A stretch of DNA of 64,000 bases. Source: Minisyncoccota bacterium. GTDB taxonomy: Bacteria; Patescibacteriota; Minisyncoccia; Phycocordibacterales; Phycocordibacteraceae. The translations under genes were made by a program, and so were the position numbers. Each line of letters begins with the position of its first letter. The stretch's first letter is position 1. Below, piece by piece: positions 9,096-61,838 of this stretch. The stretch is from positions 5,529-69,528 of the forward strand of contig JALHQL010000001.1 in assembly GCA_022841985.1 (NCBI GenBank). The letters are read 5' to 3'. Under the pieces are notes generated by a model. It did no database searches. It was not told the DNA's origin and saw only the letters and a program-made list of their open reading frames with translations.

Positions 9096-10691
9096 TTACT
9101 CTACTTTGAAACTGAACATCATCCCCGACTCAAGATGCTCGGCGATATGGCAGTGTGCCATCCAGATGCCCGGGTTTGAAGTGTCGAGAATGATGTCTAC
9201 CGTTTCTCCAGCTTTCACCAAAACTGTGTCTTTCCACGCAAGGTTTGTTTGCGGTACTCCATCGCGAGCCACAACAAGGAACCGCTGACCGTGGAAATGC
9301 ATCGGATGTTGCATCGGGTGCATAGAATTCGGATCATTAAAAATCCTGATCTTGACTGGCTCTCCGCGCTTGAACGTCCAGTCGATGTCCATGTTTTCTT
9401 TTCCGGTCGCCTGATCTCTTACTTTCCATTTGACTGCATCGGCATCGGACATTTGGTTCATCATTTCGTTTTCATCTTCCCACTCAATACCGCCTTCCGA
9501 ACTCATCATAGAGCCGCCCATCCGGGTGCCGTCCGGCATCATATGGCCTCCCATCATACTCATCATGTTGCCGCCCATGTCGATGGAGAGTTTGATTTGT
9601 TTGTTTGGTGCTTTGTCGAAATACTGCCGGAATGGAACGATACTTGCCACTGTTTCTCCATGAGTGCGGAGCCGATTGAACTCTGACGTATAAGAGACCT
9701 CAACAGAATCTGTGTTTACACCGATCGTACCAAGTGTATAGGTTTTATTCGGTGTCTTATTTTGAATCGCAAACGTGCCACTTGTATCAAACATAACTTC
9801 AACGACAGCGCGCTCAGAAGGGCCGAGCGTTACCGCATTCACCCATTGATCCTTTTCATACGCACCGCCATCTGCTCCGACTAGCTTCATCTTTGCTCTA
9901 GCGATGGAAAAGTTAAACGGTCGAGTATTTGCTGAATTGGTGACATAGAAGCGAATAACCTCTCCTTTTTTTACAGAAAGGGAATACTCTGTCTCGCCAT
10001 TTATGAGCATAACGTTCCCAAACCTGCCCATGAGAGTATGACTGGCTTCCTGTTTGTTCAAAGTAATCCTTCCGTCTTCGATTAACATATCGTCTAAGAA
10101 TAGAGCGGCCTCGCGATTCACGGGCGACCAGTAATCAGCACTTTTCGGAACCACAAGATAGTTTCCATAGAGTCCGAGTTCCTGCTGATAATCCTCCCGA
10201 ACGTGCGGATGATACCAATACATACCGGCATCCGGAAACTTGAGTTTGTAAGAAAATACTTCGCCCGGCTTCATTGCTTCCTGCGTACTCTGCGATCCGT
10301 CAAACGCATTGTCCATTCTGATGCCGTGCGAGTGGAGAAGTGTATTCATGTCAATGCCGTTTTTGAAATTGATTGTAACTTCCGCTCCTTGGGCGATTTT
10401 AATAAGCGGTCCCGGAATTGAACCATTATAGGCAAGCATCCGGTATTCCGTGCCGTTAATATTCTTTTTTACATAGCTTGCGGTGAGATCATAGGTATCG
10501 CCATCCTTAAGCTCCACTGTTTGCGTTACCGAAGCGGGAGAGAGACCTGGGGTATCTGTGCTTACATACTCGCTTCGCACTATAGAGAACGAATTATCCT
10601 GTAAAAAGAACGCCGTCCCAATTATAATAACAACCGACACGATTCCACCGAATAGTTTATTTTTCATATAGTTTAACGAATTTGTTTCCAT
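9096..10691 (-). CDS. Multicopper oxidase (CueO/laccase-like) with Met-rich insert and N-terminal TM/signal anchor
   Basis: 531 aa. Copper-centre motifs HPMHFHG and HCHIAEHLESGMM (HCHxxxHxxxxM type 1/3 Cu ligands). Met-rich segment GGNMMSMMGGHMMPDGTRMGGSMMS as in copper-resistance MCOs. N-terminal hydrophobic helix. Confidence 0.8.
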   Translation of the reverse strand: METNSLNYMKNKLFGGIVSVVIIIGTAFFLQDNSFSIVRSEYVSTDTPGLSPASVTQTVELKDGDTYDLTASYVKKNINGTEYRMLAYNGSIPGPLIKIAQGAEVTINFKNGIDMNTLLHSHGIRMDNAFDGSQSTQEAMKPGEVFSYKLKFPDAGMYWYHPHVREDYQQELGLYGNYLVVPKSADYWSPVNREAALFLDDMLIEDGRITLNKQEASHTLMGRFGNVMLINGETEYSLSVKKGEVIRFYVTNSANTRPFNFSIARAKMKLVGADGGAYEKDQWVNAVTLGPSERAVVEVMFDTSGTFAIQNKTPNKTYTLGTIGVNTDSVEVSYTSEFNRLRTHGETVASIVPFRQYFDKAPNKQIKLSIDMGGNMMSMMGGHMMPDGTRMGGSMMSSEGGIEWEDENEMMNQMSDADAVKWKVRDQATGKENMDIDWTFKRGEPVKIRIFNDPNSMHPMQHPMHFHGQRFLVVARDGVPQTNLAWKDTVLVKAGETVDIILDTSNPGIWMAHCHIAEHLESGMMFSFKVE

Positions 10692-45593: not shown

Positions 45594-45695
45594 AGGTATT
45601 AAAAAATAATAACACACCGTAACTTACTACCAAACGAGCGCGCGAAATAATGAGATTATTATTTCATTATTTTGAGCAAGCTTTGTCTGCAAAGC

Positions 45696-57010: not shown

Positions 57011-57349
57011 TTAGAACCAGCTCAACATTCGCTGCCACCAGGACGGTGTCGTCGTCGGAGCCTTAAGCTCGGGCGGCACCACCACGATAACCTCTTCTCC
57101 CGGCCGCGCAACCCCGAAGGCCGTCCGGATAGCTGCGTCCTGCCCACGGGCAGTAGCAAGCGCGGTAAGATTTGCTTGAAGCAGAGTCTTGCGCCCTTCA
57201 AGGGCTTCATATTGTCGCTTCGCCTCGTGGGCTTCCAACACTGCAACATGTGCTTTCCTGGCAAGTCCCCAGATAAGCGACGCAAGCCAGAATATGGTAA
57301 GCAAAAGAATACCAACGAGAATTCCTTGTCGCCACTGCTTCGCGTGCAT
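57011..57349 (-). CDS. FtsB/DivIC-like septum formation initiator (single TM + coiled coil)
   Basis: 112 aa. N-terminal TM (ILVGILLLTIFWLASLIWGL) followed by a short coiled coil (EAHEAKRQYEALEGRKTLLQANLTAL), the typical FtsB/FtsL architecture. Confidence 0.5.
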   Translation of the reverse strand: MHAKQWRQGILVGILLLTIFWLASLIWGLARKAHVAVLEAHEAKRQYEALEGRKTLLQANLTALATARGQDAAIRTAFGVARPGEEVIVVVPPELKAPTTTPSWWQRMLSWF

Positions 57350-57434
57350 ACGCCCAGTATACGATTTTTTTATTGATACTCCAATGAAATTGTTCTAAGA
57401 AAGGCCCTAAAATAACGACGACCAGCTAGGCCCA

Positions 57435-57761
57435 CTAGCTGGTCGTTCTCTGCACAAAATCTATCTCGTCCCGTATTTTTTGAAGGTCTCTAAGTACTTG
57501 ATGAATCTTCTCATCAATTCCTTTCATTTTCTGGAGTACTTGTTCCCATTTCACGCTATTCTCCTTAGAAACAGGCACACGGATATCCTTCGGATCAAAT
57601 GGTACTCCCAAAATTGAGATTGTCTCTTGTTGACACGAAAACTTCTCGTCATAAAGAGCCTGAAGAAGTTTTCTTTTCTCGCAAAGAATATCCTCATGAT
57701 TACCAAACTCTAGCCGTGTTACTTTTTTTCCCGATACACGACCTGAATTATTTTCTCTCAA
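57435..57761 (-). CDS. Hypothetical protein, about 108 aa. Preferred start is TTG at 57761 with SD GGGAGG; the ORF-track TTG start at 57803 lacks an SD.
   Basis: No recognisable domain (…LEFGNHEDILCEKRKLLQALYDEKFSCQQ…, coiled-coil C-terminus). A conserved 36-nt element lies ~45 nt upstream. Confidence 0.35.
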   Translation of the reverse strand: MRENNSGRVSGKKVTRLEFGNHEDILCEKRKLLQALYDEKFSCQQETISILGVPFDPKDIRVPVSKENSVKWEQVLQKMKGIDEKIHQVLRDLQKIRDEIDFVQRTTS

Positions 57762-57806
57762 GATACTTACCTCCCTTCTAGAAAGTTCAAATAATGCCTG
57801 CAAAAC

Positions 57807-57842
57807 AGTTTACTACCAAGCGAGCCGAGTAACAAGTGAATG
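57807..57842. repeat. 36-nt element R1 (AGTTTACTACCAAGCGAGCCGAGTAACAAGTGAATG), copy 1 of 2
   Basis: 29/36 identical to 58703-58738. Each copy sits 40-45 nt upstream of the start of a minus-strand hypothetical gene. Confidence 0.6.
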
Positions 57843-57910
57843 TCCTCACTCATTTGTTCGAGGCGAACGCAGGGAGCAAAGCCTCTTTACTCTAATAGGG
57901 CACGTTTAGC

Positions 57911-57959
57911 AATAAGAAATAATGTAAAGATCAGCCGACTGGTTTCCACCAGCCGGCTG
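57911..57959 (-). terminator. Rho-independent terminator of the 224-aa hypothetical gene
   Basis: Minus sense CAGCCGGCTGG-tggaaa-CCAGTCGGCTG (11-bp stem, one mismatch) followed by ATCTTTACATTATTTCTTATT. Confidence 0.5.
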
Positions 57960-57987
57960 TATGCACCTCCAATGTGCTTGTTCAAAG

Positions 57988-58662
57988 CTATGCCAGAACT
58001 CGATTCACACTTCCAGATATCCTCCCTATCGGCCTTAAGAAGGCCGGATCGATTTCTGGCTTCTTCCTGATTGAAAATTTTATTGCGGTTTCGAGCCTTG
58101 CAATCCGCCTGAGAAGGAACGCGTGCTTGCTTTTATTTTTTTCAGGGACCCAAGTGCAACCGCCTGCCTTCATTTCAAGAGCCTCGCACTCGTTCTGAAG
58201 CTTAGATATCTCCTTTTTGAGCAAAAGAAGATTTTGTTCTTCGCGAGAGAGTACGCGCTCGGCAGGAAACACTCTGACACTCTTGTTGGCTATAACTGCT
58301 TTTTTTCTTCGCGGACGCGGCCTTCCGATTTTTACATACCTCTCGAAAGACCAGCTCTCGACCACTAACGAGTAAAGCCACGGGGTTGTCCGTTTCCAGC
58401 GATCATTCTCACCACCTGGGAAATCCCTTTCTCTTCTTTCGTCATGCGGCCAGAACTTCCCGACTTCATCCCAATTTGTTTTCGCTTTGATGCGAATCAT
58501 CTCATTCTGGTTTTTGTCAGGATTATCACAAAACATCGTATGCCGACAAAGTACGAAACCAAATGGGATACCCCCTTTCTTTTTTACAAGCTCTACAAGA
58601 GCTATGAATTGCACACGATATCCCTCATCGAGCGCCTCTCGCCATAAAGTCCTGGCGAACAT
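57988..58662 (-). CDS. Hypothetical protein (224 aa), basic, with CxxxxxC pair and coiled-coil; strong SD (AAGGAGG)
   Basis: MFARTLWREALDEGYRVQFIALVELVKKKGGIPFGFVLCRHTMFCDNPD... No recognisable family. Monocistronic, with its own terminator and the conserved 36-nt upstream element. Confidence 0.4.
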   Translation of the reverse strand: MFARTLWREALDEGYRVQFIALVELVKKKGGIPFGFVLCRHTMFCDNPDKNQNEMIRIKAKTNWDEVGKFWPHDERRERDFPGGENDRWKRTTPWLYSLVVESWSFERYVKIGRPRPRRKKAVIANKSVRVFPAERVLSREEQNLLLLKKEISKLQNECEALEMKAGGCTWVPEKNKSKHAFLLRRIARLETAIKFSIRKKPEIDPAFLRPIGRISGSVNRVLA

Positions 58663-58702
58663 CGTACCTCCTTTTTAGAATGTACAAAGACTCCTGAGGG
58701 TA

Positions 58703-58738
58703 AGTTTACTTCCAAGCGAAGCGAACGACAAGTGAAGG
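58703..58738. repeat. 36-nt element R2 (AGTTTACTTCCAAGCGAAGCGAACGACAAGTGAAGG), copy 2 of 2
   Basis: See R1. It sits 40 nt upstream of the ATG of the 224-aa hypothetical gene. Confidence 0.6.
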
Positions 58739-58747
58739 AAGAAAACT

Positions 58748-59755: not shown

Positions 59756-60604
59756 CTATTTGAGCTGCTCAGTTCGTTTGAGATATATTTTCCCAGGGAA
59801 CCGGACGTCGATATATTTTAGAGTCGGATCAGAAATATTCAGCTGGCCTTTTGCGGATATGAGAGCGGTAAAAGCATTCTGTTCATCACCGAGAAGATAC
59901 GTAACGCGTGCGCCGCTCTCGAAATAAGCATCAACTTCGTCATTGCGGAACACAACAAAAGAAATCGGCGAACCAAAGGCCGCAAGTTGGCGCGCAAAAT
60001 CAAAAGCAGCGGGAAGCTTCTCGGCGTTTAGAAGTGTTTTGCCGAGGATAGTGTCAAAAATCTGATCTTCTTCAGGCGCAGCAAGCGATTGATAAACAGT
60101 AAATGTGTTGAGTAGCGGTACGGTGCTTGTCGCTGCATAAACGATACCGTTCGCATCAAAAACATAGCAGTCCGCAACGATATCAAACCTTGTTGAGTCT
60201 GACGGAGCACCACACCAACGCGCAACAGGAACGCGAGTATCCACTTTAACTGTAAGGCCGGTGAATCCGCTTCGAGATAGCGAGACAGCGGCTACGTTCT
60301 GGTGTGTCGCAATGATATCTGCACGAATATGCGAAGCAGGAAAAAAGAATATCGAATCGCGCGGAATGATGCCAAGGTAGCTCCCTTGCATAGCTGACCT
60401 CGCAATCTCCGCAAATGATGGCTCCGCGCCCACTATTTGAATATCTGAAATACGTACCGCGCTCTGCCACAGAGCATAGGTAATTCCAATACCGAGCAAA
60501 AGGAAAAACACCCCGAACGCAATGCGCATGCGGCGCCGCCTGCTGCGACGGCGAGCTGCGAGCCGCTCGCTACCGCGCGACACCGATGACACTTTTCCCG
60601 ACAT
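59756..60604 (-). CDS. ftsQ: Cell division protein FtsQ/DivIB (POTRA domain). Start at the internal Met (MSGKV...) is preferred; the ORF-track start at 60661 overlaps serS by 90 nt.
   Basis: Basic cytoplasmic segment (AARRRSRRRR), single TM (IAFGVFFLLLGIGI), POTRA-like beta domain, C-terminal beta domain. Length and architecture typical of FtsQ. Confidence 0.6.
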   Translation of the reverse strand: MSGKVSSVSRGSERLAARRRSRRRRMRIAFGVFFLLLGIGITYALWQSAVRISDIQIVGAEPSFAEIARSAMQGSYLGIIPRDSIFFFPASHIRADIIATHQNVAAVSLSRSGFTGLTVKVDTRVPVARWCGAPSDSTRFDIVADCYVFDANGIVYAATSTVPLLNTFTVYQSLAAPEEDQIFDTILGKTLLNAEKLPAAFDFARQLAAFGSPISFVVFRNDEVDAYFESGARVTYLLGDEQNAFTALISAKGQLNISDPTLKYIDVRFPGKIYLKRTEQLK

Positions 60605-61838
60605 ACGGTACGAGAGCCTCAGGCACTTTGACAGTACCGTCCGCCTGTTGATAATTCTCAACGATGGAAACTAAGATTCTTGGTGTCGGAATCGCCGTGG
60701 AATTTAAGGAATGGGGAAAACGCAGAGTCCCTTCCGCGTCGCGATATCGGATATTGAGCCGTCGCGTTTGGAAGTCGTGGAAATAAGATGCTGAGCTTAT
60801 TTCTCGATAGGTATTCTCTCCCGGCACCCAAAGTTCGATATCGTACTTCTTCACCTGTCCGAGTCCAAGATCGCCACCACAATTGACGACCGTGTGATAC
60901 GGAATGTTCAGAAGTTCAATAAACTCCTCCGTATTACGATTGAGCCATTCGTGTATGCGAACCGACTCATCGTGCTCCGCTCGGCACAAGACGACCTGTT
61001 CCCATTTAAAAAACTCATGCACGCGAATAAGACCGTTTACATCCTTGCCGTGTGCCCCCGCCTCGCGGCGGAAACAAGGAGAAAATGCGAGGAACTGCAT
61101 TGGCTGTACTGCGAGGTCGACGATCTCATTCATGTAGTAACCCATCGTTGCGACTTCTCCAGTACCGGCAAGATATTCCCCATCCTGCGTTTTATAGAGA
61201 TCGTCTTCTCCTTGCGGCAAGTAGCCGGTACCGAGAAATGCCTCGCGACGTACCAAGGACGGTACACTCAGTGGCGTAAGTCCTTTTGCCGCAAAAAATT
61301 TCAACGCCAGCTGCCATACAGCATTCATAAGAAGTACCCCGTCGCCCTTAAGGAAGTACCCACGGAATCCGGCAACTTTCGCGCCACGTTCGAAGTCCGC
61401 CATACCAAGTGTCGTCATAAGCTCGACATGACTCTTGGGTGTAAATGCGAAGATCGCCGGCTCACCCCACTTCTTCACCTCGACATTTTCAGCATCACTA
61501 ACACCGTCCGGCACCGACATGTCGGGGATGTTCGGCACCATAAGCATGAGCTTCTGCCACTCGACCATAACAACTTTTAATTTTTCTTCGCCTTCATTCA
61601 TACCCGCTTTCAGATGCTGCATCGCCTCAATGAGCTTCTCACGCTCGCTACCGCTCGCGCGCTGAATCTCGTTGCTCCGCCTATTTTGCTCCGCGCGCTT
61701 CGCCTCAAGCTCCTGTTTCAAAAGCTTCCGCTCATCGTCAATGGCAAGCAGTCGATCAATGTCGACTTCGATACGCTTCTTTACTGCCCCGGCTTTGATT
61801 ACGTCGGTATTCTCCCGAATGAAATGTATATCGAGCAT
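60570..61838 (-). CDS. serS: Serine--tRNA ligase
   Basis: 422 aa. N-terminal coiled-coil arm. Class II motifs (FRREAGAHGKDVNGLIRVHEF, ...GTGEVA..., GSALAV-like motif 3). Confidence 0.9.
   Translation of the reverse strand: MLDIHFIRENTDVIKAGAVKKRIEVDIDRLLAIDDERKLLKQELEAKRAEQNRRSNEIQRASGSEREKLIEAMQHLKAGMNEGEEKLKVVMVEWQKLMLMVPNIPDMSVPDGVSDAENVEVKKWGEPAIFAFTPKSHVELMTTLGMADFERGAKVAGFRGYFLKGDGVLLMNAVWQLALKFFAAKGLTPLSVPSLVRREAFLGTGYLPQGEDDLYKTQDGEYLAGTGEVATMGYYMNEIVDLAVQPMQFLAFSPCFRREAGAHGKDVNGLIRVHEFFKWEQVVLCRAEHDESVRIHEWLNRNTEEFIELLNIPYHTVVNCGGDLGLGQVKKYDIELWVPGENTYREISSASYFHDFQTRRLNIRYRDAEGTLRFPHSLNSTAIPTPRILVSIVENYQQADGTVKVPEALVPYVGKSVIGVAR

Follow-up and report, generated by a model that had tools for sequence, protein, structure and literature searches.

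Two adjacent genes for hypothetical proteins, on the minus strand of a 64,000-nucleotide (nt) stretch of DNA from an uncultured groundwater Minisyncoccota bacterium (GenBank assembly GCA_022841985.1, contig JALHQL010000001.1), are each preceded by the same 36-nt element, which raises the questions of what the element is, how it came to stand before both genes, and what the two genes encode. We refer to the whole stretch as the window; every window feature for which we give coordinates lies on its minus strand. The upstream gene encodes a protein of 224 amino acids (aa; 57988 to 58662, ATG start at 58662) and the downstream gene a protein of 108 aa (57435 to 57761, TTG start at 57761). We call the element R1 where it precedes the 108-aa gene and R2 where it precedes the 224-aa gene. 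A preliminary description of the locus had interpreted the pair as a co-regulated accessory function of two components. We arrived at a different reading, which, judged from sequence, we consider moderately probable: a sigma-70-type promoter unit would have been re-used for the second of two paralogous modules, and the two products would be co-expressed and associate with each other.

A promoter-like element before both genes

R1 (57807 to 57842) and R2 (58703 to 58738) are identical at 29 of 36 positions (81%), as the preliminary description had reported, and a repeat finder recovered a 34-nt core (57807 to 57840 and 58703 to 58736) at 82% identity. It also returned a second paired segment (57768 to 57791 and 58665 to 58688) with a spacing nearly equal to that of R1 and R2. 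On realignment, the similarity is in fact longer than 36 nt: upstream of the two genes it forms one continuous run with a single indel, from the ATTCACTTGT / -35 region to the Shine-Dalgarno (SD) sequence, and covers approximately 53 of 74 nt (~72%) by manual count on the alignment. Within the window, the consensus of the element matched R1 and R2 only, and a match occurred in none of 100 dinucleotide-preserving shuffles.

The start codon of each open reading frame (ORF) follows its element at a distance of 45 nt for R1 and 40 nt for R2, and both ORFs have a strong SD sequence; the placement given in the preliminary description thus stands. The 5' untranslated region (UTR) of the 224-aa gene (58663 to 58702; CAGG..TTTGTACATTCTAAAAAGGAGG) carries the SD sequence AAGGAGG, and that of the 108-aa gene (57762 to 57806) carries AGGGAGG. 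The TTG start and SD sequence of the 108-aa gene are kept on two other contigs, and the block TTTG.AC.TTCTA.AAGGAGG is common to the 224-aa gene, the 108-aa gene, and genes of the same family on other contigs.

A sigma-70-type promoter consists of a -35-like and a -10-like hexamer 16 to 18 nt apart, with transcription starting 5 to 10 nt past the -10 hexamer. Both elements have this arrangement. R1 reads ATTCAC-TTGTTA-CTCGGCTCGCTTGGTAG-TAAACT, with a putative -35 hexamer TTGTTA (57830 to 57835) and a putative -10 hexamer TAAACT (57807 to 57812) separated by a 17-nt spacer; R2 reads CTTCAC-TTGTCG-TTCGCTTCGCTTGGAAG-TAAACT, with TTGTCG (58726 to 58731) and TAAACT (58703 to 58708) likewise separated by 17 nt. 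In an alignment of eight sequences from six genomes, TTG of the -35 hexamer and TA..CT of the -10 hexamer are invariant. The -10 boxes of other upstream regions in the window are mostly TATACT or TATAAT, and TAAACT differs by one base. Given this resemblance to the TATACT-type boxes, together with the position before gene starts, we read R1 and R2 as sigma-70-type promoter cores. In addition, AGTAAACT is enriched in the window (four observed, 0.9 expected), with one further copy located before a gene start. Most likely, then, R1 and R2 are the core of a promoter that stands before two neighboring genes and lies within a longer conserved unit.

The preliminary description had proposed a genome-wide search for further copies of the 36-mer. 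Run on the 64-kb window, part of a contig listed at 126 kb, the search found no further full copy and one partial copy, before tsf, the gene for elongation factor EF-Ts (product confirmed by Pfam). This copy, CGCTCGTTTGGTAGTAAGTT (45621 to 45640, minus strand), is a partial copy of the 3' half of the element, from its spacer and -10 part; it lies 27 nt before the ATG of tsf and has no recognizable -35 hexamer. Searched as a degenerate box, the sequence had three matches in the window against 0.04 expected. The occurrence of the box before a housekeeping gene argues against an operator private to the gene pair. Of the shared promoter- or operator-like module that had been suggested, the promoter-like part is the one that we retain, on the basis of hexamers, position, and conservation. 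At tsf (45621 to 45680), an AT-rich hairpin (free energy [dG] -7, z -3.1) precedes CGCTCGTTTGGTAGTAAGTT, and the same layout of hairpin and box is seen in one of the relatives described below (L097, unit A).

Origin of the second copy

Loci and contigs of relatives are designated here by L-numbers. In L005, L006, L094, and L097, dus and the first gene of the family to which the 224-aa gene belongs have the element between them. In this lineage of Paceibacteria (Patescibacteria/candidate phyla radiation), the unit is normally single and occupies that position, with a hairpin at or just after the dus stop codon followed by the putative promoter, ~38 nt of 5' UTR, and the SD sequence. In the window and its nearest relatives, a second unit stands before the next gene, just downstream of an older promoter of the ATTGCTAAA type.

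The sequence upstream of R1 retains marks of this origin. The farthest upstream is a putative remnant of the promoter that the small gene had earlier (57885 to 57912; TTGCTAAACGTGCCCTATTAGAGTAAAG; TTGCTAAAC..AGTAAAG); in L002 and L006, the arrangement ATTGCTAAA..TAAACT is the sole promoter-like site before the small gene. Next to it lies a non-coding remnant of ~25 nt (57862 to 57884; AGGCTTTGCTCCCTGCGTTCGCC) that resembles the sequence at or just after the dus stop codon in relatives. The R1 unit as a whole (57807 to 57891) is collinear with the 3' end of dus and the intergenic sequence of L005 and L006, starting from AGTAAAG, and AGTAAAG itself matches the sequence at the dus stop codon in the window and in L005. 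A dus-stop-like remnant with AGTAAAG at its 5' side indicates that R1 derives from the dus-proximal unit and that a copy of this unit was inserted where the old -10 box lay. With AGTAAAG at one end of the unit and AGTAAAC at the other, recombination at these short repeats is a plausible route.

L097 and L095, which come from one sample and overlap by 18 nt, represent the nearest relative; once they are joined, two tandem units are seen before the small gene. In this joined locus (L097 780 to 935 and L095 1 to 140), the first unit has, in place of the palindrome, an AT-rich hairpin unrelated to it (AAAAGAAAAATCAGAATTTTTCTTTT; dG -10.7, z -4.7). R1 is 86 to 96% identical to copies in other genomes (96% to a relative's copy of the 224-aa-gene type) and 80% identical to R2. 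R2 is closest to the copy in L094 (89%) and is without a 33-nt left-arm segment that L005 has. Each element is thus closer to copies in other genomes than to the other element, which indicates two old allelic types rather than a recent duplication.

Upstream of R1 and overlapping it is an imperfect palindrome (57826 to 57861; TCGAACAAATGAGT-GAGGAC-ATTCACTTGTTACTCG) whose right arm holds the putative -35 hexamer. In L005 and L006, a palindrome likewise precedes the element and contains the -35 hexamer in its right arm; in L006 it has the form AACAAGTGAAT-7-ATTCACTTGTT, and its left arm overlaps the dus stop codon. The folded sequence has a dG of -15.9 kcal/mol (z -1.9) at R1 in the window, -15.3 (z -5.6) in L095, and -12.9 (z -4.1) in L006. 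An intrinsic terminator consists of a G+C-rich stem followed by a U-tract. Here the stem is followed by CGGCTCGCTTGG, with no run of U, and the palindrome was not listed by our terminator scan. Two other interpretations of the region upstream of the genes were considered and rejected: a mini-ORF or leader peptide in the UTR, whose frame is not kept between the copies, and a sigma-54 promoter at TTGG..TTGCA, for which the spacing is wrong.

Copies of a mobile promoter would be expected before non-homologous genes. At this locus, the coding sequences that adjoin R1 and R2 (the hairpin domain and the N-terminal domain, respectively) are not homologous to each other, and the two genes as a whole are partial paralogues. 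The closest phenomenon yet described is promoter propagation: a study of putative mobile promoters took upstream segments of 50 to 100 nt with at least 80% identity (Matus-Garcia, Nijveen & van Passel 2012, PMC3488235). Our case is similar in that a homologous promoter-bearing segment stands before more than one gene in one genome, and in that one copy keeps a scrap of its former neighborhood, the 3' end of dus. It differs in degree, since R1 and R2 are ~72% identical over 74 nt and reach 81 to 82% only over 34 to 36 nt, short of the length and identity set in that study (PMC3488235). Because the downstream genes are tandem partial paralogues, local duplication or recombination is favored over mobilization to an unrelated gene.

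Protein family and chromosomal position

By profile comparison, the 108-aa protein is a stand-alone copy of the C-terminal helical-hairpin domain of the 224-aa family. The profile of that family matched the small ORF over profile positions 130 to 219 (E = 1e-8 among all ORFs of the loci; domain E = 1.7e-11), and in the reverse search a profile of the small proteins matched distant full-length members. HHalign of the two alignments gave a probability of 97.1% (E = 4.9e-11) over 90 columns, pairing residues 13 to 105 of the small protein with residues 126 to 205 of the large one; pairwise BLASTP of the 108-aa against the 224-aa protein gave no match. In both, helix 1 opens with the motif L-x-F-G-N, the tip carries V-P-x-E-N, and helix 2 closes with E-(M/I)-x-F; the 108-aa protein reads LEFGN..VP.SKEN..W..IRDEIDF. 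Because both genes are modules of a single family, co-expression is probable, and the two products may associate through their hairpins. With near-identical promoters, both proteins would be made together, and the small hairpin protein would associate or compete with the hairpin of the large protein.

An AlphaFold2 model of the 224-aa protein built from a 57-sequence alignment (mean predicted local distance difference test [pLDDT] score 82.8) replaced a model built from 8 sequences (57.7). The predicted N-terminal domain (residues ~1 to 112) has four long antiparallel strands (residues 2 to 58, pLDDT >90), followed by short helices to residue ~111. A basic linker with the sequence GRPRPRRKK, modeled with low confidence (isoelectric point [pI] 12 for residues 113 to 139), leads to a predicted C-terminal antiparallel hairpin of two helices (residues ~140 to 198) with a small beta tip, and then to a conserved tail. 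The protein had been described as basic, and its pI is 10.1. A cysteine pair, CRHTMFC, had also been pointed out as a feature of this protein; the pair is not conserved in the family, the first cysteine being tyrosine in most relatives, and we rejected it as a metal-binding site.

Of the elements of the predicted fold, the coiled-coil hairpin is generic, and the assignment of the other as PUR-like is weak. The predicted two-helix hairpin, which forms the C-terminal domain and makes up the 108-aa protein entirely, resembles antiparallel coiled-coil hairpins such as those of prefoldin beta, the N-terminal arm of seryl-tRNA synthetase, and the ESCRT-I stalk. For the N-terminal domain, the best Foldseek matches in the PDB were PUR-alpha repeats (8chv_B, E = 0.14, probability 0.96; 5fgp_A, probability 0.80), and four antiparallel strands followed by a helix are also the pattern of the PUR repeat and the Whirly and PC4-like folds. 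However, the Foldseek template modeling (TM) scores are only 0.2 to 0.3, and the invariant W-x-K-T-T-x-W-L motif of the family lies outside the beta sheet. The profile of the N-terminal domain showed no PUR similarity in searches of PDB and Pfam, and HHalign against an approximate human PURA sequence gave a probability of 0.06%. With no sequence support, we treat the PUR likeness as a lead only, and a nucleic-acid-binding role of the 224-aa family is accordingly a weak lead.

Close relatives of the 224-aa protein formed only eight clusters among 5.8 billion proteins, and the small protein had two close relatives. When 1.84 billion cluster representatives were searched with a profile, 60 family proteins were recovered (43 at E <= 1e-10), mostly 200 to 260 aa in length (range 97 to 278). 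The preliminary description had placed neither protein in a known family, and our searches agree. Neither protein had a match in Pfam, PHROGs, PADLOC, or NCBIfam, and in PADLOC-DB 2.0 no family reached E <= 1 for either. Pfam searches with 57 family members and 37 N-terminal domains returned scattered coiled-coil noise only; PDB sequence profiles returned coiled coils only and nothing for the N-terminal domain. We found no family relatives in BFVD, phage records, plasmid records, or IMG/VR, none in GTDB genomes when the family alignment was searched through two peptide patterns, and no paper on the 224-aa family in the literature.

As the preliminary description had stated, both genes are monocistronic; we found a strong terminator for each. 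The hairpin at 57932 to 57959, which it had assigned to the 224-aa gene, has a dG of -24 kcal/mol (z -5.9) and is conserved in L002, L006, and L097; that of the 108-aa gene (57418 to 57446) has a dG of -22.1 kcal/mol (z -5.9). Between the dus stop codon and R2, no notable hairpin was found (dG -7.2, z -0.2).

The closest relatives by serS (63 to 88% identity) are metagenome-assembled genomes labeled Paceibacterota, Paceibacteria, Kaiserbacteria, or Patescibacteria, many carry the label uncultured Candidatus Saccharibacteria, and the window accordingly comes from a bacterium of the candidate phyla radiation. We obtained gene context for seven lineages, and in six of these a family gene lies directly 3' of dus. 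In L001 to L004 (74% identity to the 224-aa protein, the reference for the percentages that follow), the order is serS, an ftsQ-like gene, dus, and genes for 226, 100, and 108 to 142 aa, followed by 112-aa and glutaredoxin genes like those of the window. In L005 (49%), dus is followed by a 235-aa gene, and in L006 (45%) by genes for 233 and 85 aa. L087 to L089 (29%) have serS, unannotated genes for 280 and 142 aa, dus, genes for 238 and 114 aa, and dnaX; L090 (29%) has serS, an ftsQ-like gene, dus, and a 237-aa gene; and L094 has dus and then a 100-aa gene only. L087 and L094 stem from Hainich groundwater wells. The exception is L091 to L093 (P0068; 32%), contigs of 2.2 to 2.4 kb that carry unannotated genes for 90 and 132 aa and then a 247-aa family gene, without dus. 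Regarding the presence of the pair in related genomes, a check that the preliminary description had proposed, the family is thus found directly after dus, with gene order held down to 29% identity, and the smaller satellite genes are gained and lost. In most of the 80 species-representative genomes that keep serS, the ftsQ-like gene, and dus, no family member was detected, and the place after dus is taken by dnaX or other genes.

Between the window and L002, serS is 95% identical and dus 90%, compared to 74% for the large protein and 28% for the small one. The 224-aa and 108-aa genes belong to a fast-changing, lineage-specific family at a fixed chromosomal spot, and the idea of a defense or toxin module is not supported. 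The synteny and the lack of phage, plasmid, and viral relatives indicate a patchy, lineage-specific occupant of one position rather than a mobile island. Elsewhere, the region after dus is variable: in L010 (9083 to 10273) dnaX follows directly, and in L011 (9100 to 11600; Kaiserbacteria chromosome OY969413) orphan ORFs and an insertion sequence (IS)-type integrase precede dnaX, with gene names in both loci taken from reading the translations. One of the L011 orphans (9662 to 10093) has a marginal match to the N-terminal domain (E = 0.03).

Single-domain satellites directly follow either dus or the full-length gene. Genes with the N-terminal domain only were found in L003 (5928 to 6413), L087 (6890 to 7234), and L054 (9778 to 10164), and genes with the C-terminal domain only in L002 (7214 to 7543), L044 (4371 to 4724), L013 (9134 to 9421), and L094 (667 to 969). 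The family in this respect resembles tandem paralogue arrays with domain fission, in which full-length, N-only, and C-only genes lie side by side and copy number and content vary between close relatives; it differs from them in having no described function and in being anchored to one housekeeping neighbor, dus. Two near-identical, co-occurring strains (L002 7543 to 8062 and L003 5891 to 6512) differ by a 102-nt in-frame deletion in an N-only satellite, which takes out the most conserved motif of the family (FP..RW.ET..WL) and suggests decay or strain-level variation. In L006 (2967 to 3503) and L094 (reverse, 573 to the contig end), the small hairpin gene is followed by members of a further unannotated family (MNIISVLSRVF.. 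/ MFIISSILDQWF..), for which Pfam gave no match and the window has no counterpart.

The neighborhood had been described as housekeeping, with tRNA-Gly, ftsB, dus, ftsQ, and serS. We confirmed dus, serS, and tRNA-Gly, as well as glutaredoxin and tRNA-Arg. The labels ftsB (57011 to 57349) and ftsQ (59756 to 60661) lack profile support, with no match to Pfam or NCBIfam at E limits of 0.01 and 0.1. The lone marginal match of the 112-aa protein labeled ftsB was to GspM (E = 0.029, 14 bits). For the ftsQ-like protein, identity is only ~50% between genomes in which that of serS reaches 95%. G+C content is 0.40 to 0.42 over the small gene (57400 to 57999) and ~0.50 in the flanks.

Weighing the explanations

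Several points weigh against the reading of a re-used promoter unit. R1 and R2 match the Escherichia coli consensus at only 8 of 12 positions, below the threshold of 9 in our consensus scan, which for that reason listed neither site. The spacer (TCG..TCGCTTGG) is conserved as strongly as the hexamers, and a simple promoter accounts neither for this added constraint nor for the box without a recognizable -35 hexamer before tsf; the constraint could reflect a factor-binding box or a promoter feature specific to this organism. Given the two allelic types, the duplication is old, or else one copy was gained by recombination with another strain. With no terminator separating dus and the 224-aa gene, transcription from dus is likely to run into the latter. 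That the two proteins associate with each other is something we purely infer.

We weighed three other explanations, ranked in plausibility as a regulator site, then an RNA element, then a defense or toxin/antitoxin system. The conserved sequence could be mainly a regulator site, either the palindrome AACAAGTGAAT-N6/7-ATTCACTTGTT over the -35 hexamer or the spacer box CGCTCGYTTGGTAGTAA; a candidate for the regulator is the 224-aa protein, which would act on its own promoter and that of its paralogue. The conservation of the spacer fits this explanation, as do the palindrome, which is perfect (11 of 11) in L006 and L095, and the protein, with its high pI, basic linker, hairpin suited to dimerization, and weak PUR-repeat-like fold match. 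However, the left arm of the palindrome is missing from R2 and L094, its arms vary by compensatory substitutions, and the unrelated hairpin in unit A of L097 favors structure over sequence recognition; the box also precedes tsf, and no DNA-binding domain was matched. We consider a regulator site unlikely. The element could also act as RNA, with the hairpin forming the 3' end of the dus transcript (as terminator or stabilizer), or with R1 and R2 lying in a leader whose CUCGCUU would pair with the SD sequence (AAGGGAG) to control translation. Stem cells are paired at 93%, compared to 26 to 42% in slid controls, with two double-compensatory pairs (L095 AGCAAATGAAT/ATTCATTTGCT) and z values of -4 to -5.6 in relatives; the pairing of CUCGCUU with the SD sequence was proposed by RNAalifold, and the older promoter remnant at 57885 to 57912 could transcribe R1. 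Nevertheless, 122 of 500 shuffles reached the observed covariation, with six informative sequences, so that covariation support is weak. The hairpin is without a U-tract and is absent at R2 and L094, and the anti-SD leader structure was rejected, its consensus having -1.6 kcal/mol and no covariation. In Rfam 15, the only match below E = 1 was a sub-threshold one to U12 (18.7 bits against a gathering threshold of 53, E = 0.57), which we took as chance. An RNA element therefore appears to us quite unlikely.

The accessory system of the preliminary description (defense, toxin/antitoxin, or stress response), inserted among housekeeping genes, would account for the upstream module common to both genes, the low G+C content of the small gene, the very fast divergence, the gain, loss, and decay of satellites, and the variable region with an integrase found after dus elsewhere. 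Type II toxin/antitoxin systems are two genes in one operon, often overlapping, with recognizable toxin and antitoxin folds. The pair resembles these, and systems in PADLOC, in being two small adjacent genes without annotated function and with a common upstream motif. In contrast to them, it forms no operon: the genes are set apart by a strong terminator and a promoter-like site of the second gene's own, and with separate promoters and terminators a toxin/antitoxin operon does not fit. The proteins are homologous rather than complementary, without known toxin, antitoxin, or defense domains (PADLOC, PHROG, Pfam, and NCBIfam were negative). There is no sign of mobility, with no relatives in phage, plasmid, BFVD, or IMG/VR sequences and a chromosomal position constant down to 29% identity. 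The idea of an accessory system is thus poorly supported, and we regard it as highly improbable. The re-used promoter unit before two paralogous modules remains the reading that we prefer.

A further conjecture, improbable in our estimation, is that the 224-aa family is a nucleic-acid-binding protein specific to Patescibacteria, with a PUR/Whirly-like beta domain, a basic linker, and a dimerizing hairpin, which would bind the hairpin or box at its own gene and that of its paralogue, and perhaps at tsf, with the small hairpin protein as antagonist or partner. If true, the locus would be a small self-regulating circuit that evolves quickly through the gain and loss of modules. On the reading that we prefer, the locus presents a promoter unit re-used for a neighboring gene with the mark of its origin, a dus-proximal scrap, still attached. 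For annotation, two "hypothetical proteins" are to be treated as one family, a previously undescribed two-domain family of Paceibacteria that splits into single-domain genes.

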